Virus record (IMG/VR): IMGVR_UViG_3300032070_000002
Span: 26,230-90,229 of that record
Direction: 5' to 3' (one strand)
Length of the DNA: 64,000 nucleotides
Source of the DNA: a virus
This document shows positions 8,950-26,580 of this stretch, in pieces. The translations under genes were made by a program, and so were the position numbers. How positions within the stretch are numbered: the first letter of the stretch is position 1; each line of letters opens with the position of its first letter. The notes beneath the pieces are model-generated. The model worked only from the letters and a program-made list of their open reading frames with translations. It was not told the origin of the DNA and did not search any database.

Positions 8950-9438
8950 ATGAAATACAAACTAACAAATGTAACAAAGGTATGGTGTGGAATAACCTTG
9001 CATCAGATTGAGGCGACTATTTCTTTTGGTGGTATATCTAAAGGCGATAAGGGGGGATATATAGAAAAAGAAAATAATTTAGACCAATCTGGCGACGCTT
9101 GGGTGTCTGACAACGCTCGGGTGTCTGGCAACGCTTGGGTGTATGGCAACGCTCAGGTGTATGGCGACGCTTGGGTGTATGGCAACGCTTGGGTGTCTGA
9201 CAACGCTTGGGTGTCTGACAACGCTCGGGTGTCTGACAACGCTCGGGTGTATGACAACGCTTGGGTGTATGGCAATGCTCAGGTGTATGGCGACGCTTGG
9301 GTGTATGGCAAATTAAAACTTACTTTTGGGTACTTTTTTGGAATACGCTTTAAAAAAGAAAAAATAAAATATGTAAAATTAGATGATAATAATGAGATTA
9401 TTTGTAAGGGGGATATAAAGTTTGAGGAACTTAAATAA
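8950..9438 (+). CDS. Phage hexapeptide-repeat (left-handed beta-helix-like) protein
   Basis: [14 protein letters not shown] followed by (V[SY][GD][ND]A[WRQ])x12. Confidence 0.85.
9091..9306 (+). repeat. 12 x 18-bp coding tandem repeat
   Basis: Unit g[ga]c[ga]a[ct]gct(tgg/cgg/cag)gtgt[ca]t; 216 bp. Confidence 0.95.
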
Positions 9439-10542: not shown

Positions 10543-11700
10543 ATGAATAAAATTTTTATAAATCTTCCAAGTAAATATACTACTATTATGTTAGTAGCAC
10601 CTACGGGATTAGTAAACGAATTTGAAAAATATCCTTACGGTATTTCTCATTTTTTAGAGCATATGCATTTTAAGGGTACAAAGAAAAGAACTACAAAACA
10701 AATAGCTTATGATATAGAAAGATACGGCGGAGATTTAAACGCTTTTACGGATAGTGAAATTACGGGTTATTATGTTAAAATAGCTAATCGTTATATGAAT
10801 AAAGGTTTTGACGTAATTTCAGACCTAGTAGAAAATTGCGTAATCCCGGAAGAGGAAATAGATAAAGAAAGAAAAGTAATATTACAAGAGTTAAAAAGTT
10901 ATGAAGACGATCCTCAAGAGAAAGTTAGTGATTTATTTTATACAAATATGTATAATATTCACTATCCACTTCATTACCCTATTATAGGTTTCCCTTCTAC
11001 TTTAAATCAAATAGGTAGAAAGGAATTATTAAAATATAAAAAGGATAGATATAATCCATTAACTTTAATTATAGTAGGCGATATCGCGGATTGTTTAGAT
11101 ATTAAATTGTGTCCTACCTCTTATCCAAAAGTAAATTTTCTTTCTACTAACAAAGAAAAATTTATAGAGCGAAATAATTTACAACAAGCACAAGTTATTA
11201 TAGGATTTTCTCAATTTTTACCTATTGATGCTACAACTTTATTTTTTACGGTAGCTTTAATAGAATCAATTTTAAACGATATGAGCGGAAGACTATTTAC
11301 GGAAATTAGAGAAAATCATAATTTAGTATACGGTATTAGATTTTCAAGTACTATTTTTGGAAATAATCTATTTCAATGGAAAGTAAGTTTAGGATTAGAA
11401 AAAAATAAAATAAATCAAGCAAAAGAATTAATAATTAAGGAATTAACAAGACCTTTTACTAGCCAAGAAGTTGAAGATGCGGTAATTAAATCTATAGGAG
11501 AGCTAGAATTAAGGACTTCGTCTTTTTTAATTTCTAATATTATCGCAAATAGTATAACGACTAATATAGATTGGCAACGAATAATTTTTAACTATAAAGA
11601 GGAATTTAAGAGAGTAAAAGATTATGTAAATAGTGTGCAAGAATTAATAGATTTTACTAATTATAAAATAGTAGGCCTCATTCCGGGAGATAAAAAGTGA
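10543..11700 (+). CDS. M16 (pitrilysin-like) zinc peptidase
   Basis: Inverted zincin GISHFLEHMHFKGT, NAFT, ERKVILQE, RLFTEIRE. Confidence 0.92.
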   Translation: MNKIFINLPSKYTTIMLVAPTGLVNEFEKYPYGISHFLEHMHFKGTKKRTTKQIAYDIERYGGDLNAFTDSEITGYYVKIANRYMNKGFDVISDLVENCVIPEEEIDKERKVILQELKSYEDDPQEKVSDLFYTNMYNIHYPLHYPIIGFPSTLNQIGRKELLKYKKDRYNPLTLIIVGDIADCLDIKLCPTSYPKVNFLSTNKEKFIERNNLQQAQVIIGFSQFLPIDATTLFFTVALIESILNDMSGRLFTEIRENHNLVYGIRFSSTIFGNNLFQWKVSLGLEKNKINQAKELIIKELTRPFTSQEVEDAVIKSIGELELRTSSFLISNIIANSITTNIDWQRIIFNYKEEFKRVKDYVNSVQELIDFTNYKIVGLIPGDKK

Positions 11701-13810: not shown

Positions 13811-14644
13811 ATGAAGGACTTACTACCGGATATTCAAAATACGCCTGTTTCTTCTATTCAAATAGATAGAGTAGGAGTAACGGATATTGATTTTCCGCTA
13901 CCCATAAAATTAAAAAACGGTATAATTCAAACTATTTATTCTACCGCACATTTATATGGTTCCTTACCTAAAACAAGAAAAGGAACTAATATGTCTAGGT
14001 ATTTAGAAGTATTATTTCAACAAAAACAACCTTTAAACGTAAGAAAAAATTTAAGAGATTTTCTATATCAATTATTACAAGTAGTAGATACGAAGGATAT
14101 ATATTGTGAAATTAATTTTAAATTATTTATGGAGAAAATAGCTCCGGTTTCAAAAAAGAAAGGTGTGTTAGCATATAATTGTTCTCTTATAGGCAGATTA
14201 CAACAAGGTAAGTATACTTTCTTTAATTATGCATATAAAATTAAAGTTCCCGTTACTTCGGTTTGTCCTTGTTCTAAACAAATAAGTAAGTTCGGCGCAC
14301 ATAATCAAAGAGGCTACGTTGAAGCTACTATAATATTTGAAAAAAATAAATCAATTCCTTTAGAGGATTTAATAAAACTAATAGAAAAACAAGGCTCGTG
14401 TGAACTATATCCTATTTTAAAAAGACCCGATGAGAAATACGTAACCGAAAAGGGCTATAAAAATGCAAAATTTGTAGAGGATATATGTAGAGATGTGGCT
14501 ATTAAGTTGCAAGAGATAAGTGTAATAAAGAAGTTTAAAATTAAGGTTGAAAATTTTGAAAGTATACACGACCATAACGCGGTAGCGTATGTTTTTAGAA
14601 AGAGACGGGGTAAGAGATGGACTTCAGATATACAAATAATTTAA
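13811..14644 (+). CDS. folE2: GTP cyclohydrolase IB
   Basis: LPDIQ, IDRVGV, KGTNMSR, CPCSK, AHNQR, KRPDEK.VT, FVED, ESIHDHNA. Confidence 0.93.
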   Translation: MKDLLPDIQNTPVSSIQIDRVGVTDIDFPLPIKLKNGIIQTIYSTAHLYGSLPKTRKGTNMSRYLEVLFQQKQPLNVRKNLRDFLYQLLQVVDTKDIYCEINFKLFMEKIAPVSKKKGVLAYNCSLIGRLQQGKYTFFNYAYKIKVPVTSVCPCSKQISKFGAHNQRGYVEATIIFEKNKSIPLEDLIKLIEKQGSCELYPILKRPDEKYVTEKGYKNAKFVEDICRDVAIKLQEISVIKKFKIKVENFESIHDHNAVAYVFRKRRGKRWTSDIQII

Positions 14645-15716: not shown

Positions 15717-16457
15717 ATGAAATTAGCTTTTATTGTTCCTAGTTCTTATATTAAAGAAGTAGATAAGTATTGTGACTTACACTTATTTCTTTCTCATTTA
15801 CTTTATAATAATTCTTACGCCGCCGCAGTTTTATCAATTAATAAATATAAAATTTTAGATAACGGCGCTTTTGAAACTGGCATACCGGAAGAAGGAAATA
15901 CGCTATTATCAAAAATGGATTTTGTAAAAGCAAATGAAGTAATATGCCCTGATATATTTTACAATACAAAGGAAACCTTAAAAAAAGTTAAAACTTTTAT
16001 ATCTTTTTTAAAGAAGAAAAAGGAATTAAGAAATTATAAATTACAAGCTTCTATTCACGGCAGAACATTAAATGAATTATTATATTGTTATGCAGAATAT
16101 TTAGATATAAAAGAAATAGACGTAATAGGAATAGGCTATACCGCTATAAAATATAGCGGATTTAGTAGGATAGAATTTATACGCGGATTACAAGGAGAAG
16201 GATTATTACAAAAATCCATACATTTGTTAGGGTTAGGAAATAACGGGGGAGAAGAGTTGAAGGAGTTAGGCAAATGTAAATTTATAAGGTCAAATGACAG
16301 TTCTGCAGCGTATGTTTTAGCAAGGGATAATAAATTAATAAGTCCTATAGGAAAATTTGAAAGGAATAAGAAACCTATAGATTTTAATGACGAATATAAA
16401 TTAGAAACATATTTAACTCTAAAGCGAAATATGCAAACTTTAAGAAGGTTAGGATGA
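15717..16457 (+). CDS. dpdA: DpdA-like (TGT-fold) DNA 7-deazaguanine transglycosylase
   Basis: ILDNGAFE, ICPD, IHLLG, IRSNDSS match TGT/DpdA motifs; sits among folE2/queCDE. Confidence 0.75.
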   Translation: MKLAFIVPSSYIKEVDKYCDLHLFLSHLLYNNSYAAAVLSINKYKILDNGAFETGIPEEGNTLLSKMDFVKANEVICPDIFYNTKETLKKVKTFISFLKKKKELRNYKLQASIHGRTLNELLYCYAEYLDIKEIDVIGIGYTAIKYSGFSRIEFIRGLQGEGLLQKSIHLLGLGNNGGEELKELGKCKFIRSNDSSAAYVLARDNKLISPIGKFERNKKPIDFNDEYKLETYLTLKRNMQTLRRLG

Positions 16458-17200
16458 AATATTTTGAGCGCTGGTCAGAAAAGGAACTTAAAGAATTAGA
16501 AGAATATATGAAACAAAAGTTAACTAGCGAAGAAATTGCTAAACTTTTAGATAGAACAGAAAATACGGTAAGAATACATATGAGAAGATTAAGAACTAAA
16601 ACTTCTACCTATGGAAATAAGGGAGGTAGAAGATATAAAAGAGAATTAGATACCGAATTTATTAATTTAATTAAACCTAAAGATATACTAGACGGTTATT
16701 GCGGTAGTGAAACACATTATCCAAAAGAAATAACAATAACAAATGATATAAATAAATCTTTTAATACCTCTTATCACTTACCGATTTTTAAACTTTTAGC
16801 AAAATTTACATATGAAAATAAGAAATTTGATTTAATAGATTTAGACCCTTGGGGTTCTGCATACGATAGTTTATATTTAGCAATTTATTTAGCTAATAAA
16901 GGTTTAGTAGTTTCTTACGGCGAATGTTACTTAAAAAGATTTAAGCGTATAGATTTTGCGGCAGAAAAATACGGTTTGTATTTTGATAAATACGGTTTTA
17001 GTACAAAGATGTTAGTTGAATATACAAAACATTTAGGAATGATTTGCCGAAAAAAATTAGAAGTATATAAGGATTATGATTTAGGGCACTTTAGTAGAGT
17101 ATACTATATAATAAAACCTTTAAAAACATTAAAAGTTGTCCAAAGTTGGAATACTATTAGAGAAAGAAAAGAAGAGTATGCTAAAAAAGCAGTTACATAA
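16454..17200 (+). CDS. HTH + Rossmann methyltransferase with Trm1-like DLDPxG motif
   Basis: N-terminal W..E...L...EIAK.L.R...V HTH; ILDGYCG, NDIN, FDLIDLDPWGS. Confidence 0.65.
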   Translation: MKYFERWSEKELKELEEYMKQKLTSEEIAKLLDRTENTVRIHMRRLRTKTSTYGNKGGRRYKRELDTEFINLIKPKDILDGYCGSETHYPKEITITNDINKSFNTSYHLPIFKLLAKFTYENKKFDLIDLDPWGSAYDSLYLAIYLANKGLVVSYGECYLKRFKRIDFAAEKYGLYFDKYGFSTKMLVEYTKHLGMICRKKLEVYKDYDLGHFSRVYYIIKPLKTLKVVQSWNTIRERKEEYAKKAVT

Positions 17201-17621
17201 AAAACATCTTAATTATTGGCGTAAACGTAAAAGATGTATTATTTGTAAAGTAATATTAACTAGAAAAAATTTACGCCCTTGGATGAAAAGGTGTTACAGA
17301 TATATTTGTAATATATGTGAAAGAAAAGGGTCTATATCTTACTATAGGGAACATCAATTGTCTTCTGGAAATAAGTATTTTTCTAATATTAATAAACGGT
17401 CCTATCCTAAAGACGGTAAATGCGAAATTTGTAAAAGGAATAAAACCCTTAAAGGTAAATCTATTAGATTAGTTTACCACCACTGGAATAATAAAGACTT
17501 TTTGAAAGGTATTTGGACGTGCGTATATTGTCACGCTATGATGGAGTGTATAGAAAAAGGGCGTCATTTAGTTTATTTTAAACTTAAAAAATTAATAGAA
17601 AAATTAGAAGGTAAAAAATGA
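17136..17621 (+). CDS. HNH-type endonuclease
   Basis: CxxC pairs, CEIC...LVYHH...WTCVYCH; true start may be ATG at 17178. Confidence 0.65.
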   Translation: MSKVGILLEKEKKSMLKKQLHKKHLNYWRKRKRCIICKVILTRKNLRPWMKRCYRYICNICERKGSISYYREHQLSSGNKYFSNINKRSYPKDGKCEICKRNKTLKGKSIRLVYHHWNNKDFLKGIWTCVYCHAMMECIEKGRHLVYFKLKKLIEKLEGKK

Positions 17622-18499
17622 GTAAACCCCGGGCGGAAGCTAGAAATTTGTGGATAGAACGTTTCAAAAACTATTTAAAAACTCTAAAAAAAGAAGAATT
17701 AGAGTTAATAAAAAAAGAAGTGTTGCCTACCTCTAAAGTAAATAATTTAGAAGTTTTTAATTCTGGAATAATGGGAAGTCAAAGATTAATATATAAAGAG
17801 ATAACAAATAATATTCCTAAGGATGTAAAAACGATAGCCGTTCCTTTTGCTTGCGGTTTAGATTTAACTTATTATTTAACTAAAAAGGGTTATGTAGTTT
17901 ATTCTTGTGATAGAATGGAATGCGTAAGAATATTAACAGAAGTATTAAAAGATTTTATAACGGATACGGATTTAGTAAAAGCTTCAAATATTTTATGTTT
18001 TACAACGGGAAAATCTTTTGGTTGGGAAGACTATATCAAAATTATGCGGTTAAAATTATTTGTAGGTGATAAGTATAGGAATTGGTTTCATTGGCAAGAA
18101 GATGCTTTTGAGTGGCTACCTAGAATGATGGCGGCCCTGAATGTGGATTTAGTATATTTAGGTACGCCCACTATAATGGAAAATAATAAGAAATTCTATC
18201 AAAGATATGTAAAGTTAGAAAAGGAGTTAGGTAACGAAATTTCGGACGATTGGAATAGAGATAACGAAATGTTAAGGTTCCGTAAATTAGTGGAAATATG
18301 CAAGTCCAAAGCCGTTAAATACGTATACGCTGGCCACGGTAGTGGAGTCTCTAAAGTAGAAGAAAAAGAAAGTATATTAAAAGAATACTATAAGTATGTC
18401 TATACACTTTTTAAGCCGTATGATACCTTTAATGATTACGTGTTGTTTGCAAGTGAAGTACCCTTAAGGATTGATAGGAGACTATGGTATGAGAGATAA
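17618..18499 (+). CDS. Degenerate Dam/D12-class N6-adenine methyltransferase-like protein
   Basis: MGSQRL, VPFACG (for PF.GG), DAFEW, DLVYLGTP (for D.VY.DPPY). Confidence 0.55.
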   Translation: MSKPRAEARNLWIERFKNYLKTLKKEELELIKKEVLPTSKVNNLEVFNSGIMGSQRLIYKEITNNIPKDVKTIAVPFACGLDLTYYLTKKGYVVYSCDRMECVRILTEVLKDFITDTDLVKASNILCFTTGKSFGWEDYIKIMRLKLFVGDKYRNWFHWQEDAFEWLPRMMAALNVDLVYLGTPTIMENNKKFYQRYVKLEKELGNEISDDWNRDNEMLRFRKLVEICKSKAVKYVYAGHGSGVSKVEEKESILKEYYKYVYTLFKPYDTFNDYVLFASEVPLRIDRRLWYER

Positions 18500-18649: not shown

Positions 18650-20497
18650 ATGAAAGATAAAGTATTTGTGCTATTTTCAGGAGGAGTAGATTCAGCGGGA
18701 CTATTATTTAACCTTCTTGAAAAAGGTTTTGAGTGTTTTCCCATATATTTCAAATGGCGGACTTGTAACGTAGCTATAAAAGAAGTAAAAATTATAAATT
18801 GGTTCTATGAAATGTATAAAGATAAATACCCGTTATTTCATAAACCGGAAATTCATTTTGAAAGAGAAATAGCAGAAACAATAGATACTAAAGAAAACAT
18901 TATGAGTAGAAATAGAATATTCCTTAAATGGTTGATAGATAGATGTATTAAAGAAAATATACATAACATAGGAATGGGCGAATACTCTTTTAAAAAAGCA
19001 CCCGATATTTGGCAAGAGAATGATGGCAAAAATTGTTGGATTTATTATTGGGGTCCTCCAAATGTTGATTGTGACGCAAACGACTTACAAGGCTTTATAA
19101 ATAAAAATAATCCTAAGGATTTTAAAATTAAACTTTGGACATTAGACGACTTCGGAATTGCTACCTTTAAACACCATAGAGTAGAAATAGGAAGAAAAGT
19201 TATAGGCTATGATATGTTTAAAACAACTTGCCTTTTAAAAGGTACTCAAATACTGATGGAAAATTACTCAATTAAATTTATTGAAGATATCGTAGTAGGC
19301 GATATTATTTTAGGATTACGGGGAAGTAAACTTATACCTTCTAGAGTTATAAGGTTATTTAAAAGGACTTCTAGCGTAGGCTCTTTAAAATATAATAAAA
19401 AAGAATTATTATCTATTACCGATAATCATAAGATATTACAAGTAGCAAAAGATTCTGAAAAAACGTATGTAATTCCTTCTGAATTAGTGAGTACAATTAG
19501 GGTATACGATATTAATAATAGTCGTTTTTTAGATGATTGGTATACGGGTTGGTTAGCGGGTTATACCGAAGGAGACGGTTGTTTGCGGCAATTACCTAAT
19601 AATTACGTATTAAGTTACCATTCAAAAGATATTCAATTATTAGAATTTGTAAATGGTTGTTTAACTCAATTTGGTATACCTAAATTAAATATTAAAATAT
19701 ATGCTACATATAGAGGGCATAATTTATATAAAATGGCTACCTGGAAAAAATCTACAATAAATAAAGTAAAAGAAGTTATTTCTTTTATAGATACGAAAGA
19801 TTATATGAGAGGCTATTTAGCGGGTATATATGATGCGGAAGGTTCCAATCAAAATACTTGTAAACATATTTGTATAAGTAATTCTAATCCGGTAATACTA
19901 AGTAAAATAGAAAAGTTTTTGAAGTGTTTAAAGTATTCGTATAAAAAGAGGTTAGGGCATCCAAAAGGAACGGGTAATTTATTCAGTAATAACGGTAAAA
20001 GATATTTATCTAAAAGAGATTTATACTTAATTTGTATGCCAAATTATATTAAATTTAATATAGAGTGTAAACCGGTGTTAAAAAGAAAAATTAAATATAC
20101 TTCTACTACTTGGAAATTGAAAGATCGAATTTGCAATTTTAAATACATAAACAATATAAAGGATAATCAAGTTGTTTACAATTTAGAAACAGAAACTGGA
20201 AATTATATAGCAAATGGTATAATTGTACATAATTGTTGCGGTAAAGGAGGAAACGGCCCCGATTGTGGAGGCCTATATCAGCAGGATTATTTATGCGCAG
20301 AAAGACACGTAGCAATGTTAAAAGTTTTTGGATATGACAACACATTTTATTTAAAGGATCCTAAATTTAATCCTTACTTTATTGAGTATTGTGTTCAAAT
20401 GAATTATTTACCGGGTATTCTTTGGACACTTAAAAATAATAAAAAGGCTTTAAGAATTTCAAAATTAAATTTAATTAAAATATTAAAAGAATATTAA
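18650..20497 (+). CDS. queC: Divergent QueC-like PP-loop ATPase with intein
   Basis: VLFSGGVDS, RNRIF, spliced C-terminus TT-CC...DCG......C..R resembling the QueC Zn site. Confidence 0.75.
   Translation: MKDKVFVLFSGGVDSAGLLFNLLEKGFECFPIYFKWRTCNVAIKEVKIINWFYEMYKDKYPLFHKPEIHFEREIAETIDTKENIMSRNRIFLKWLIDRCIKENIHNIGMGEYSFKKAPDIWQENDGKNCWIYYWGPPNVDCDANDLQGFINKNNPKDFKIKLWTLDDFGIATFKHHRVEIGRKVIGYDMFKTTCLLKGTQILMENYSIKFIEDIVVGDIILGLRGSKLIPSRVIRLFKRTSSVGSLKYNKKELLSITDNHKILQVAKDSEKTYVIPSELVSTIRVYDINNSRFLDDWYTGWLAGYTEGDGCLRQLPNNYVLSYHSKDIQLLEFVNGCLTQFGIPKLNIKIYATYRGHNLYKMATWKKSTINKVKEVISFIDTKDYMRGYLAGIYDAEGSNQNTCKHICISNSNPVILSKIEKFLKCLKYSYKKRLGHPKGTGNLFSNNGKRYLSKRDLYLICMPNYIKFNIECKPVLKRKIKYTSTTWKLKDRICNFKYINNIKDNQVVYNLETETGNYIANGIIVHNCCGKGGNGPDCGGLYQQDYLCAERHVAMLKVFGYDNTFYLKDPKFNPYFIEYCVQMNYLPGILWTLKNNKKALRISKLNLIKILKEY
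19229..20233 (+). mobile_element. Intein with LAGLIDADG homing endonuclease (335 aa)
   Basis: N-term CLLKGTQILM, TDNHKI block B, WLAGYTEGDG and YLAGIYDAEG, VYNLET..NYIANGIIVHN|C. Confidence 0.95.
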
Positions 20498-22158: not shown

Positions 22159-25100
22159 ATGGAACAAGACATAAAACCGGATAATTGTATTAAGTGCGGC
22201 CTTTGGAAGACTAGTTGTGTAGTAAACTATCAAGGACAATTCTTTGCATATAGAGTTATGGGAACCGGTCCTCAAAATGCTAAAGTTATATTTATAGGAG
22301 AAGCTTTAGGACAAGCCGAAACAATTAATCAAAAACCGTTTGTAGGAGATGCGGGCGATACTCTAAATATCGCCTTAAAAGAAGCTAATATAAATAGGGA
22401 AGACGTTTATATAACAAATACTTGTAAGTGTTTTTACAGTCCTAATGTATTAGTATTTACTTCAAAAGGATGGAAAATGCTTGGAAAGATACGTAAGGAC
22501 GATTTAGTATTAACTCATAAAGGACGATTTAGAAGAGTTATAGCCCCTTTAAAAATAAAGGTACATCCGGACACTACTTTTTTTACTTGTTATCTTAAGT
22601 CTAACGGCGGTAATCCCTATAAAATTACCGTTACCGGAGATCATAAATTTTTAACAAATAAGGAATGGACTAAAGTTAGCGACTTACGAATAGGGGATAG
22701 GGTAAGAGTTCTTGCACAAAAATGTATTCAATGCGGTTCCTTATTTTATTCGGATTATAGGCAAACTCAACTTTGCTCCTTAGAATGTACTAAGAAATGG
22801 AACGGTATTAGAGGTGCCCGTCAAAACAGAGTTCAAAATATTAGAGATAATATTTCTAAAAGTATGAAAGAATTATATAAAAAAGGAATAAGAAACGGAT
22901 TTAAAGATACTATTAATTTTCGTAGAAAATTAGACGGTAGCTTAAATGTTATAGGTAGAAACGGGGTAGGCGAAAAAGAACTATACGAATTATTAACTAA
23001 GAATAGGTACGAAGTAAAGCGCCAAAAATTAATAGCGGATAGATATTTTGCAGATTTTTATTTACCTAAATTGAATATAGTAATAGAGGTGTGGAATAGT
23101 AGTTATAGAAGTATGATAGATAAAAGAATATGGTATGAACAAAGAGGTTATAAATTTTTAGATTATCATTATTCAATAATTTTTAGATATCCGGAAGTAA
23201 TTTTAACGGAAATTAGAAATTTAGAAAAAAATGATAATCACGAATTTAACTTTATAGATACCTTATTAATAGATAAAAAAGGGATTACGCCGAGACGAAA
23301 AAGCGTATTTTCTTTATCGGTAGTAGAAGACGAATCTTTTATAGCAGGGGGTTTAGTTTCGCATAACTGTCGTCCTCCTGAAAATAGGCCGCCTAAAACA
23401 ATGGAAATAAAATGCTGTCTTCCTTTTTTATTAGAAGAAATTAGAAATATAAGCCCAAAAATTATATGTACTTTAGGAAGTGTAGCGTTAGAAGCAATAT
23501 TAAAACGTAAAGGAATATCAAATATTAGAGGTAATATATACGAAACCGAAATAGAGGGATTAAAAGTTAAAGTTATTCCTACCTATCATCCGGCCTATGT
23601 TTTAAGACGTCCCGAATATCCTAATTTAAAAGTAGACTTTCATAAAGATATAAAGTTAGTTAAAGAAGTAAGCGATAATTTAGATTATAAAAAAGAAAAG
23701 CTTCCTACCTATTACTGTACTACTCCTAAGGTAGAAGATATTTTAATATATATAGATAAAATTAAAAAAGTAGGCTTATTTGGGTACGATATAGAAACGG
23801 AAGGTTTTAACTTTTTAAAAGATAGAATCATATCTATAGCCTTAAGTTGCGTCGTACAAGAAGCTATAGCTTTTTATTTGATAGATTATACCCCGGATGA
23901 ACAAGATAAAATATTTGCGGGATTAAAAGAAATATTAGAATCAAAAGAACTTCTTAAAATAGGTCAAAATTTAAAATTTGATAATAAGTTTTTTAAAACA
24001 TACGGTATTGAAGTTAAACTACCCTTATTTGATACTATGTTAGCACATTTTTTAATAGACGAAAATAGTTCTCACGGTTTAAAAGATTTAGCTTATAAAT
24101 ATACGGATATGGGTGGATATGAAGAAAACTTTGAAAATATATTTAAAGAATTAAAAGGTAAAATGAAAAAAGATTTAATAGAAAGTTTAAAAGAAACAAA
24201 GAAAAACTCTTTAGAAGTATATACTAAATTATTACAAGAAGGATTAGAAAAGATAGATAATTTTTCTATAGTACCTAAAGAAGTTTTATTACCGTATAAC
24301 GCCTCTGATGTTGATTGTACTTTAAGGATTTATTATGCATTAAAAGATTTAATAGAAAAAGAAGAATTGACTAAAGTATACTATTATATTATGATACCTT
24401 TACTAATAGTATTAACGGAAACGGAATATAGCGGTATTCAAATAGATACTAACTACCTTAATATTTTATCAAAAGATTTACAAGATAGAATAGAAGATAT
24501 ACAATTTCAAATAAATAGTAGGCCGGAAATAAAAAAAGTAGAAGAACTTTTACCTAGTTTAATTAAAAGTAAAAAAATAGAAGATATTAAATTTAATATT
24601 AATTCTCCTAAACACCTTCAAGTCTTATTGTATAAAGTTTGTAATTTACAACCTATTAAACAAATAAAAACCGGTTATTCAACGGATGAGGCTACTTTAA
24701 AAACATTACAAGAAAAAAGTGAAATAGTAAAGTTAATTATGCAATATAGAACGATCAATCACGATTTTACTACGTATGTAGAACAATTAAGAAGTAGTTT
24801 AGATGAAAACGGAAAATGTCATACGGATTATATGCAACACGGCGCTGTTAGCGGTAGAGTAATTTCTCATAAACCTAACTTACAAAATATTCCTAGGGAT
24901 TCTAATATTAAAAAATTATTTATACCGGATAAAGGGTGCGTAATAATATCTGCGGACTATGCTCAAATTGAGTACAAAGTATGGGCTAACTATTCTAATG
25001 ATCCTCAAATGTTAGAGGATATTAGAAATGGGTTAGATATCCATTCGGAAGTTTGTTGTTTAGTGTGGCCTCACTTATATAAAAAAGTAGGCGACAAACA

Positions 25101-25746
25101 ATATTTACATATTCTTACGGGAGAAATAAAAAGTAAAGTAAGCGCGGAACATAGAGTAAAAGCTAAACAAGTGGTATTTGGATTAATATACGGTAGAGGA
25201 ATACCTAGTTTAGTAAAGGATTTAGGAATAACGGAATTAGAAGCTATAGCAATTGTTAATTACGTGTTAGGAAAATATCCTAAAGCTAAATTATGGCTAG
25301 AAAATCAAAAGAAGGATGTAAAGAAGTATAAACGAGTAAAAGATTTATTTGGTAGAATTAGAAGGTTACCGGAAATAGATAGTAAGGATAATGAAAGAGT
25401 AGCAGAAGTTATTAGACAATGTTGTAACGCACCTGTTCAAGGCGGCGCAGCGGATATTACTAGTATAGCTACTATTAGAGTATATAACTTAATTAAAAAA
25501 TTAGAAATGTTAATGAGATTAATTTTAACTATACACGATTCTTTAAAATATTCTACACCAGTAAAAGAAATAGATAAGGGTATAGAATGTATGAAAAAAG
25601 GAATGTGTTCTAGCATTCCGGGAGTAACTTTTCCGCTAGAAATAGAAATAGAGATAGGACCAAATTGGTATGATTTAATTTCTTTAGAAGAATTTAATAA
25701 AGATAGAAATAAATACTTAAAGGAATGGAACTTACTTGAAGTATAA
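22159..25746 (+). CDS. polA: Family-4 UDG - 3'-5' exonuclease - DNA polymerase A fusion with intein
   Basis: UDG: CxxC, IGEALG, PFVG, KC|RPPENR, TYHPA; exo: DIETEG, NLKFD, YNASD; pol: PNLQNIP, DYAQIE, KQVVFGLIYG, HDS. Confidence 0.95.
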   Translation: MEQDIKPDNCIKCGLWKTSCVVNYQGQFFAYRVMGTGPQNAKVIFIGEALGQAETINQKPFVGDAGDTLNIALKEANINREDVYITNTCKCFYSPNVLVFTSKGWKMLGKIRKDDLVLTHKGRFRRVIAPLKIKVHPDTTFFTCYLKSNGGNPYKITVTGDHKFLTNKEWTKVSDLRIGDRVRVLAQKCIQCGSLFYSDYRQTQLCSLECTKKWNGIRGARQNRVQNIRDNISKSMKELYKKGIRNGFKDTINFRRKLDGSLNVIGRNGVGEKELYELLTKNRYEVKRQKLIADRYFADFYLPKLNIVIEVWNSSYRSMIDKRIWYEQRGYKFLDYHYSIIFRYPEVILTEIRNLEKNDNHEFNFIDTLLIDKKGITPRRKSVFSLSVVEDESFIAGGLVSHNCRPPENRPPKTMEIKCCLPFLLEEIRNISPKIICTLGSVALEAILKRKGISNIRGNIYETEIEGLKVKVIPTYHPAYVLRRPEYPNLKVDFHKDIKLVKEVSDNLDYKKEKLPTYYCTTPKVEDILIYIDKIKKVGLFGYDIETEGFNFLKDRIISIALSCVVQEAIAFYLIDYTPDEQDKIFAGLKEILESKELLKIGQNLKFDNKFFKTYGIEVKLPLFDTMLAHFLIDENSSHGLKDLAYKYTDMGGYEENFENIFKELKGKMKKDLIESLKETKKNSLEVYTKLLQEGLEKIDNFSIVPKEVLLPYNASDVDCTLRIYYALKDLIEKEELTKVYYYIMIPLLIVLTETEYSGIQIDTNYLNILSKDLQDRIEDIQFQINSRPEIKKVEELLPSLIKSKKIEDIKFNINSPKHLQVLLYKVCNLQPIKQIKTGYSTDEATLKTLQEKSEIVKLIMQYRTINHDFTTYVEQLRSSLDENGKCHTDYMQHGAVSGRVISHKPNLQNIPRDSNIKKLFIPDKGCVIISADYAQIEYKVWANYSNDPQMLEDIRNGLDIHSEVCCLVWPHLYKKVGDKQYLHILTGEIKSKVSAEHRVKAKQVVFGLIYGRGIPSLVKDLGITELEAIAIVNYVLGKYPKAKLWLENQKKDVKKYKRVKDLFGRIRRLPEIDSKDNERVAEVIRQCCNAPVQGGAADITSIATIRVYNLIKKLEMLMRLILTIHDSLKYSTPVKEIDKGIECMKKGMCSSIPGVTFPLEIEIEIGPNWYDLISLEEFNKDRNKYLKEWNLLEV
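22429..23367 (+). mobile_element. Intein in UDG domain with DUF559/Vsr-like endonuclease (313 aa)
   Basis: CFYSPNVLVFTSKGWK, TGDHKF, E..L...RQ....ADFYLPKLNIVIEV, SFIAGGLVSHN|C. Confidence 0.92.
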
Positions 25747-26175: not shown

Positions 26176-26580
26176 ATGGAACAATACGACTTAGATCCTC
26201 AAGTAAAAGAAGTAATAGATAAAATAGAAGAAATAGGCAAAGCTTTAAGAACAGATGCAATATCTAAAAGTTTTAGTCCTAGAGCAGAATATTTAAAAAT
26301 GTTAGATATAGCAACCGGTTGTTATATGTTTCTTGCTCCAGAGTACAAAAGGTACCGTGCTATAAAAGAAAATAATGAGGTTGCAAAATATGTAACCCTT
26401 AAAAACGAACAAATTACTAAATTTGTTTCTGCTTCTGCAGAACGAGAAGCTAGTACTTTCGTATCTAAGGAAAGATATATAAGAGATGTATTAGAGGGTT
26501 GGTTAATGGCTGCAGAGCAGGCAATTTATACACTAAAGAAACATTTAGGTGACGATAAAAAAGAAGAGAGCCTTTCTTAA
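26176..26580 (+). CDS. Helical protein, possible recombination mediator
   Basis: All-alpha ~130 aa directly upstream of SSB; positional inference only. Confidence 0.3.
   Translation: MEQYDLDPQVKEVIDKIEEIGKALRTDAISKSFSPRAEYLKMLDIATGCYMFLAPEYKRYRAIKENNEVAKYVTLKNEQITKFVSASAEREASTFVSKERYIRDVLEGWLMAAEQAIYTLKKHLGDDKKEESLS

Follow-up and report, generated by a model that had tools for sequence, protein, structure and literature searches.

In this article I describe a viral gene whose product joins a helix-turn-helix (HTH) domain to the catalytic core of Trm1, the tRNA guanine-N2 methyltransferase, and which lies inside a cluster of 7-deazaguanine genes on a 64,000-nucleotide stretch (positions 26,230 to 90,229) of the IMG/VR virus record IMGVR_UViG_3300032070_000002, a stretch that I will call the window. 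The reading that I favor, with somewhat better than even confidence, is that the protein is an orphan, mobile amino-methyltransferase of Trm1 descent, aimed at DNA by its HTH and traveling in a cassette that landed inside the deazaguanine cluster. The observations reported here are its fold, its Trm1 kinship, the conservation of its motifs, its genomic contexts and the absence of co-occurrence with deazaguanine genes; this reading would add to them that the substrate is DNA, that an amino group is methylated and that the role is protective. The gene, its neighbor and their junction are as follows.

16454 to 17200, forward strand: HTH-fused minimal Trm1-type S-adenosylmethionine (SAM) methyltransferase, 248 amino acids, ATG start, intact open reading frame (ORF).
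15717 to 16457, forward strand: DpdA3-like DNA guanine transglycosylase, the upstream neighbor, 246 amino acids, assigned from its AlphaFold2 (AF2) model, Foldseek and BFVD matches and QueE/QueD linkage.
16454 to 16457, forward strand: ATGA start/stop overlap between the dpdA3-like gene and the methyltransferase gene, read directly from the sequence.

An earlier note, made from the letters of this DNA alone, had singled out the string FDLIDLDPWGS as a Trm1-like motif, and the string is indeed present at residues 125-135 (nucleotides 16826-16858). That the resemblance is not due to chance follows from the residues D126, D129, D131, P132 and G134, which are each at least 85% conserved in the family and are aligned to motif IV of Trm1 by Pfam, by the PDB profile search and by hhalign alike. 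The family itself was collected in a word-index search, which returned 32 homologues at 34-42% identity, many of them already tagged PF02005 (the Pfam TRM family), and in a profile search of 1.84 billion representatives, which returned 91 clusters at E<1e-30. Taken singly, the window protein reaches 14.5 bits against PF02005 (E 0.02, residues 120-147 only), below the gathering cut-off of 27 bits; 27 of 28 homologues, also scanned singly, match the same model at E<=0.01 (best 6.2e-9), and the longer relatives P0097, P0111 and P0063 exceed the cut-off at 36.7, 40.3 and 27.3 bits. When the family profile was searched against the PDB, residues 127-156 of P. horikoshii Trm1 (2dul) were matched over motif IV, and the hhalign comparison of the family with an archaeal Trm1 (L061:7719-8723) gave a probability of 96.9% at E 1.9e-10.

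The fold tells the same story. The Foldseek comparison with Trm1 that the earlier note had proposed places Trm1 structures at ranks 1-5 in the PDB (E about 1e-6, TMq 0.5), and VIA, which is independent of Foldseek, gives Trm1 Z scores of 14.5 and 13.4 with the longest alignments (173 and 168 residues), tied with the RlmI-like Tt1595 at Z 15.3. In the ESM Atlas the protein falls in viral clusters that carry PF02005 and the automatic name 'N2,N2-dimethylguanosine tRNA methyltransferase family', with Trm1 clusters as their neighbors. PHROGs also relates the window protein weakly to phrog_11619, 'DNA methyltransferase', at E 1.7e-3 (5.6e-6 when P0063 is the query), and identity to Trm1 is about 15-22%. 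The same note had reckoned with a structure that groups with ordinary DNA methyltransferases, and neither the Pfam nor the profile nor the fold evidence places it there: the protein is related to Trm1 through the catalytic core only, and appears distinct from the ordinary DNA adenine and cytosine methylases.

In its AF2 model (predicted local distance difference test, pLDDT, 82.5) the protein begins with a three-helix domain, continues through a long linker helix into a Rossmann core of seven strands, and ends at residue 248, straight after strands β6-β7 and one helix. Its parts can be listed in order.

16478 to 16603, forward strand: N-terminal three-helix HTH domain, residues 9-50, from the AF2 model, Pfam, PHROGs and the PDB profile search.
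16610 to 16672, forward strand: linker helix with the motif T-Y-(G)-N ... K, residues 53-73, with Y53 and K62 conserved to at least 85%.
16688 to 16705, forward strand: motif I, L79-D80-G-Y-C-G84, which follows strand β1 as the SAM-binding loop; L79, D80 and G84 are conserved.
16742 to 16747, forward strand: motif II, N97-D98, where strand β2 ends; it does not vary in 28 sequences and is conserved to at least 85% in 91.
16826 to 16858, forward strand: motif IV, FDLIDLDPWGS, residues 125-135, in which D131-P132-W133 corresponds to D-P-F of Trm1.

The HTH, which the earlier note had called a DNA-binding type, is supported from several sides. Its helices span residues 9-20, 25-32 and 36-50 of the model at pLDDT 91-95; residues 11-49 give sub-threshold Pfam matches to Sigma70_r4_2 (E 2e-4), GerE and HTH_11; the PDB profile search finds 2lvs at E 3e-4 with weaker matches to NarL and GcrA; and across the family the GcrA model (PF07750) matches 6 of 28 members, with Myb-like matches in others. 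The first 74 residues also match phrog_323, 'transcriptional regulator, D5-like' (E 2.4e-9). It is this best PHROG match, together with the GcrA-like matches, that would favor a transcription regulator, a protein that would bind promoters through its HTH and use the methyltransferase-like domain as a SAM sensor or for autoregulation, with catalysis being secondary. Some methylases with N-terminal HTHs do autoregulate. Against such a role, however, the most conserved parts of this family are motif IV (D-P-aromatic-G) and the SAM-binding motifs, which argues for selection on catalysis, and I regard a regulator as very unlikely.

Beyond the HTH, the linker motif appears to be collinear with the N-terminal Trm1 segment F-Y-N-P...N-R-D, to judge by inspection of the archaeal Trm1 ORF in locus L061, and the VIA alignments to Trm1 begin at model residues 50-53. 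The motif I region was compared with LSATGVRALRYAKE of the archaeal Trm1; in the model, strands 78-80 and 94-97 lie only 13 residues apart, and of helix αA only a short loop remains. The positions conserved in at least 85% of the 91-sequence alignment are Y53, N54, K62, N66, L79, D80, G84, N97, D98, D126, D129, D131, P132, G134, K149, G150, G156, Y173 and R215, and the window protein departs from them only at N54 and N66, both in the linker, while keeping every one in the catalytic domain; the aromatic residue of motif IV is W here and F or Y in the relatives. Since these positions are kept and the deviations stay within the range of the family, the window protein has the look of a typical, functional member of the family, with nothing to suggest a decayed copy. 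The idea that it is a diverged, neofunctionalized outlier was considered and rejected on the same two linker deviations.

How such an enzyme might work can be sketched from these parts. The HTH would dock the protein on nucleic acid, most likely the double-stranded DNA of the phage, SAM would be held by motif I (D80, G84), motif II (N97-D98) and D126, and a flipped-out base would enter the pocket formed by D131-P132-W133 and be methylated on its exocyclic amino group. The D-P-aromatic motif would point to methylation of an amino group and not to which base carries it. In the window phage, the enzyme would then most likely serve as an orphan self-protection methylase within a small methyltransferase cassette.

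The family is essentially confined to viruses. Among 185,579 species genomes only 6 contigs, from metagenome-assembled genomes, were found to carry it, and a further 400 genomes from one phylum yielded no member. In these searches, which looked in bacterial genomes for a restriction-modification context, the family thus proved essentially absent from cellular genomes. A tblastn search of 50,697 GenBank phage records with the window protein and P0034 found no match, and a metagenome-contig search with the single window protein found no relative. The window phage itself comes from a sediment metagenome, and the stretch occurs in one sediment-metagenome run, possibly the run from which it derives, and to a small extent in a second run, with no RNA run listed for it. 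In the literature searched I found no description of an HTH joined to a truncated Trm1 core in phages, and nothing relevant on Trm1-like phage DNA methylases or on natural N2-methylguanine in phage DNA, in agreement with the remark in the earlier note that guanine-N2 methylation of phage DNA was not known to it.

Fifty-five IMG/VR loci with a homologue, each taken with up to 10 kb of flank, show where the family resides: among early and replication genes, in the company of a PF01555 DNA methylase, a C5 cytosine methylase, NinG, a primase-helicase or WhiB, and in small phage genomes of 30-50 kb. The PF01555 N6/N4 DNA methylase lies within 5 kb in 14 of the 55 loci, which form 12 clusters when grouped at 70% identity, and in five it directly adjoins the gene. 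Such an abutting methylase, of the CcrM-type beta class, is seen in L054 (9283-11759, on both sides), L011, L012, L014 and L005. GcrA reads CcrM-methylated DNA, and the weak GcrA-type matches in 6 of 28 members, taken with the abutting methylases, raise by analogy the idea that the HTH may target DNA already methylated by the neighboring PF01555 enzyme. Some members are themselves fused to further sequence: P0097 (646 amino acids), P0111 (700), P0156 (626) and P0175 (418) carry 200-450 extra residues, which have no Pfam or PHROG match apart from hints of HTH_23 and a MerR-type HTH. These fusions might point to the partners or targets of the family.

It is here that an RNA substrate has to be weighed, namely that the family has retained its ancestral activity as a phage m2G/m2,2G methylase of host or phage tRNA or rRNA, for instance in stabilizing tRNA or shielding it from tRNA-targeting nucleases of the host. 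The characterized relatives and the top fold matches (Trm1, RlmI-like, Trm5, TYW2) all act on RNA, the automatic cluster names speak of a tRNA methyltransferase family, and the window has an RNA ligase gene not far away. However, the C-terminal tRNA-binding domain of Trm1 is absent and the protein stops after the Rossmann core, the added HTH is of the sigma-70 r4, Myb or GcrA type that is typical of DNA binding, and the family adjoins DNA methylases and replication genes, so that I consider an RNA substrate unlikely.

Preferring an orphan DNA methylase must nevertheless be done in full view of what speaks against it. Its closest characterized relatives are all RNA enzymes, no solved DNA methylase appears among the top 50 fold matches of either Foldseek or VIA, and only the HTH and the gene neighborhood decide the choice of DNA over RNA. 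No target-recognition domain is recognized in the window protein apart from the HTH, and so short an αA is uncommon among SAM binders. The methylase neighborhood, with a PF01555 enzyme within 5 kb in 0 of 77 DpdA3-like loci, favors DNA, but it must be read with care, since these loci do not form a neutral control for how often methylases occur. Finally, the window is the sole case in which the gene abuts dpdA, and a lineage-specific recruitment may be what this single case records.

This brings me to the neighbor. The upstream gene, which the earlier note had named dpdA, is DpdA3-like, as indicated by a TGT-like TIM-barrel fold, similarity to a phage DpdA3 and linkage to queD and queE. Its AF2 model (pLDDT 92.4) has ArcTGT and TGT as its top Foldseek matches in the PDB (E 1e-7), and its best match in BFVD is a protein of Cellulophaga phage phiST (E 9e-19, TMq 0.88), which I take to be the published DpdA3 (CGPG_00065). 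There is no Pfam match and nothing significant in the PDB sequence-profile search, the kinship being seen by fold search. Among 80 related IMG/VR DpdA3-like loci, QueE is encoded nearby in 43 and QueD in 33. Hutinet et al. (2023; PMC10516641) assigned DpdA3 to both phiST and a Flavobacterium phage, and in DpdA3 phages guanine is reported to be completely replaced. Further genes of the pathway in the window are those for QueD, QueE, FolE2 and a divergent QueC bearing an intein.

18650 to 20497, forward strand: divergent QueC-like ATP-PPase interrupted by a LAGLIDADG intein (Pfam LAGLIDADG_3, Intein_splicing, Hom_end_hint).

The N-terminus of this ATP-PPase gives weak Pfam matches to QueC, ThiI and tRNA_Me_trans. 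QueF was not found in the 90-kb record, and no preQ1 is therefore expected in the window phage.

From this setting comes the possibility that the enzyme tailors deazaguanine, methylating the phage DNA at N2, either of guanine or of the 7-deazaguanine that DpdA3 installs, to yield a novel base with two modifications. In favor of it are the position of the gene between dpdA3 and queC and its ATGA overlap with dpdA; its closest characterized relative, Trm1, is an N2-guanine methylase; and without QueF in the record the phage would not be expected to offer a preQ1-type amine for methylation instead. DpdM, a dPreQ1 methylase with a DUF3109 fold and a CxxxCxxCC metal motif, is the sole validated enzyme that methylates a 7-deazaguanine in phage DNA, and its target is the side-chain amine of preQ1 (PMC10516641). 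Like DpdM, which is encoded beside dpdA and que genes, the window methyltransferase adjoins dpdA; unlike DpdM, it has neither a DUF3109 Pfam match nor the CxxxCxxCC motif and is a Rossmann methylase. Identity with DpdM was rejected on this unrelated fold, and the reaction would have to be a different one.

What tells against tailoring is the distribution of the genes. In tblastn searches, dpdA, queC, queD, queE and folE2 were found in none of the 55 methyltransferase loci; PF01242 (QueD) or PF01702 (TGT) was found in none of 41 whole viral records of such loci, 17 of them at least 90% complete; and an HMM of the methyltransferase domain matched none of the 80 DpdA3-like loci, such that the pairing with dpdA and que genes occurs in this window only. 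A related locus, L087, shares the phosphoribosyltransferase, FolE2, DpdA, QueD and an AAA kinase with the window at 31-51% identity, and its dpdA is followed by unrelated genes for a cupin and Mre11/Rad50-like proteins, with no methylase. Furthermore, the window protein is ordinary at all conserved catalytic positions, and base specificity is not readable from a D-P-aromatic motif, so that an N2 target derives only from the Trm1 kinship at about 15-22% identity. As to the junction, the ATG of the methyltransferase (16454-16456) and the TGA of the upstream gene (16455-16457) do form the ATGA that the earlier note had reported and read as translational coupling; the overlap stands but is not specific to the pair with dpdA, because 18 of 100 gene junctions in the window show the same 4-nucleotide start/stop overlap, among them that of the M16 peptidase and QueE and junctions of unrelated genes.

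With no co-occurrence outside the window and an overlap this commonplace, the functional tie to the deazaguanine pathway proposed in the earlier note finds no support, and the case for a novel, dpdA-coupled hypermodification of guanine becomes weaker. The methyltransferase is probably not a 7-deazaguanine tailoring enzyme, a judgment drawn from gene distribution and motifs, and I hold such tailoring to be quite unlikely. As for guanine N2 in DNA more generally, the family is a good candidate in which to look for its methylation, though the probability is low, and I likewise think it improbable that this is a phage-exclusive family of DNA guanine-N2 methyltransferases which in the window phage acts on DpdA3-installed 7-deazaguanine, leaving a base modified in both grooves.

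An orphan methylase in a mobile cassette, the reading favored here, is also what the genes immediately downstream would lead one to consider.

17178 to 17621, forward strand: Cys-rich small protein, with CxxC ... HH ... CxxCH; the ORF may start at TTG 17136.
17618 to 18499, forward strand: Dam-like (D12-class) methyltransferase-fold protein, 293 amino acids, with PF02086 among its Atlas structure neighbors.

The Cys-rich ORF overlaps the 3' end of the methyltransferase gene by 23-65 nucleotides and the start of the Dam-like gene by ATGA; it has no match in Pfam, PHROGs or PDB sequences, and inspection of its motifs suggests an HNH-like or zinc-ribbon nuclease. The Dam-like protein likewise has no match in Pfam, PHROGs or PDB sequences, and in the Atlas it lies near D12 adenine methylases (PF02086) at TM 0.65-0.70, with feature neighbors that include a PF22555 DAM-like-phage1 'antirestriction adenine methyltransferase' cluster; its motif IV reads LGTPT where DPPY would be expected. 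With this gene two positions downstream of the methyltransferase, the window repeats the pattern of neighboring DNA methylases seen in the other loci of the family. The trio of mini-Trm1, Cys-rich and Dam-like genes lies between dpdA3 and queC and is absent from the related phage of L087, which is a further point against tailoring.

Several other features of the deazaguanine cluster deserve recording. A phosphoribosyltransferase (PF00156, 10110-10541), FolE2 (a type IB GTP cyclohydrolase, 13811-14644) and the DpdA3-like gene (15717-16457) occur together in the window, and the same arrangement of phosphoribosyltransferase, FolE2 and DpdA recurs in loci L073, L087, L088 and L139 (32-47% identity for the phosphoribosyltransferase and 35-50% for FolE2). 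The small phosphoribosyltransferase may thus be a conserved part of the DpdA3 module. The RNA ligase gene (PF09414, 12338-12931) lies between queE and folE2, and L087, too, encodes an RNA ligase (L087:18612-19679), whose N-terminus is of the OB/tRNA-binding type. Interleaved with the que genes are a YdcK-type beta-solenoid/hexapeptide protein (8950-9438) and an M16 insulinase-like peptidase (10543-11700). A second intein-bearing gene, at 22159-25746 of the window, encodes a UDG-PolA fusion, and its intein region also matches DUF559 (PF04480).

What emerges is a widespread, phage-only family in which the core of a tRNA guanine-N2 methylase has been borrowed, the tRNA-binding domain dropped and a DNA-type HTH gained. 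If it is true that the family methylates DNA, it would constitute a new lineage of DNA methyltransferases, and if the target were guanine N2, it would bring to light a new kind of natural DNA mark, one placed in the minor groove, with relevance to anti-restriction biology and to enzymatic tools. For those who study 7-deazaguanines, there is also a caution here, that a gene inside a dpdA/que cluster, even one whose start overlaps the preceding stop, need not encode an enzyme of the pathway.

It remains to place the family among known systems. With Trm1 (PF02005; structures 2DUL/2EJT from P. horikoshii and 3AXS/3AXT from A. aeolicus) it shares the class I Rossmann catalytic core and the order of motifs, which runs (F/T)YN, motif I, ND, xDA, DLIDLDP(F/W)GS and K-x-G...T. 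By inspection, and with Trm1 named first in each pair, FYNP...NRD corresponds to TYN...K...N, LSATG to (L)D-x-Y-x-G with D or ND at the end of β2, H-S-DA to Y/N-x-DA, YDLIDLDPFGSP to FDLIDLDP(F/Y/W)GSA, and K-x-x-G-L-L-G-I-T to K-K-G-L-I-I-T. Unlike Trm1, the family has no C-terminal tRNA-binding domain (the archaeal Trm1 in L061 runs about 190 residues further), reduces helix αA to a loop, adds the N-terminal HTH and is restricted to phages. With GcrA and Myb-like domains it shares the N-terminal three-helix pattern W-x-x-E-E...I-A...R...V...K-R-L, through weak matches that stay below curated thresholds, although here the HTH is fused to a methyltransferase. Lastly, there are the orphan phage DNA amino-methyltransferases, the PF01555 beta-class N6A/N4C enzymes and the PF02086 Dam/D12 enzymes, from which the family differs in its motif D-P-W-G, with one proline, and apparently in its lineage within the generic class I fold that they share; they nevertheless occupy the same genomic niche as the family, often as adjacent genes, use a D/N-P-P-aromatic type of catalytic loop for exocyclic amines, and in some cases carry HTH fusions of their own.

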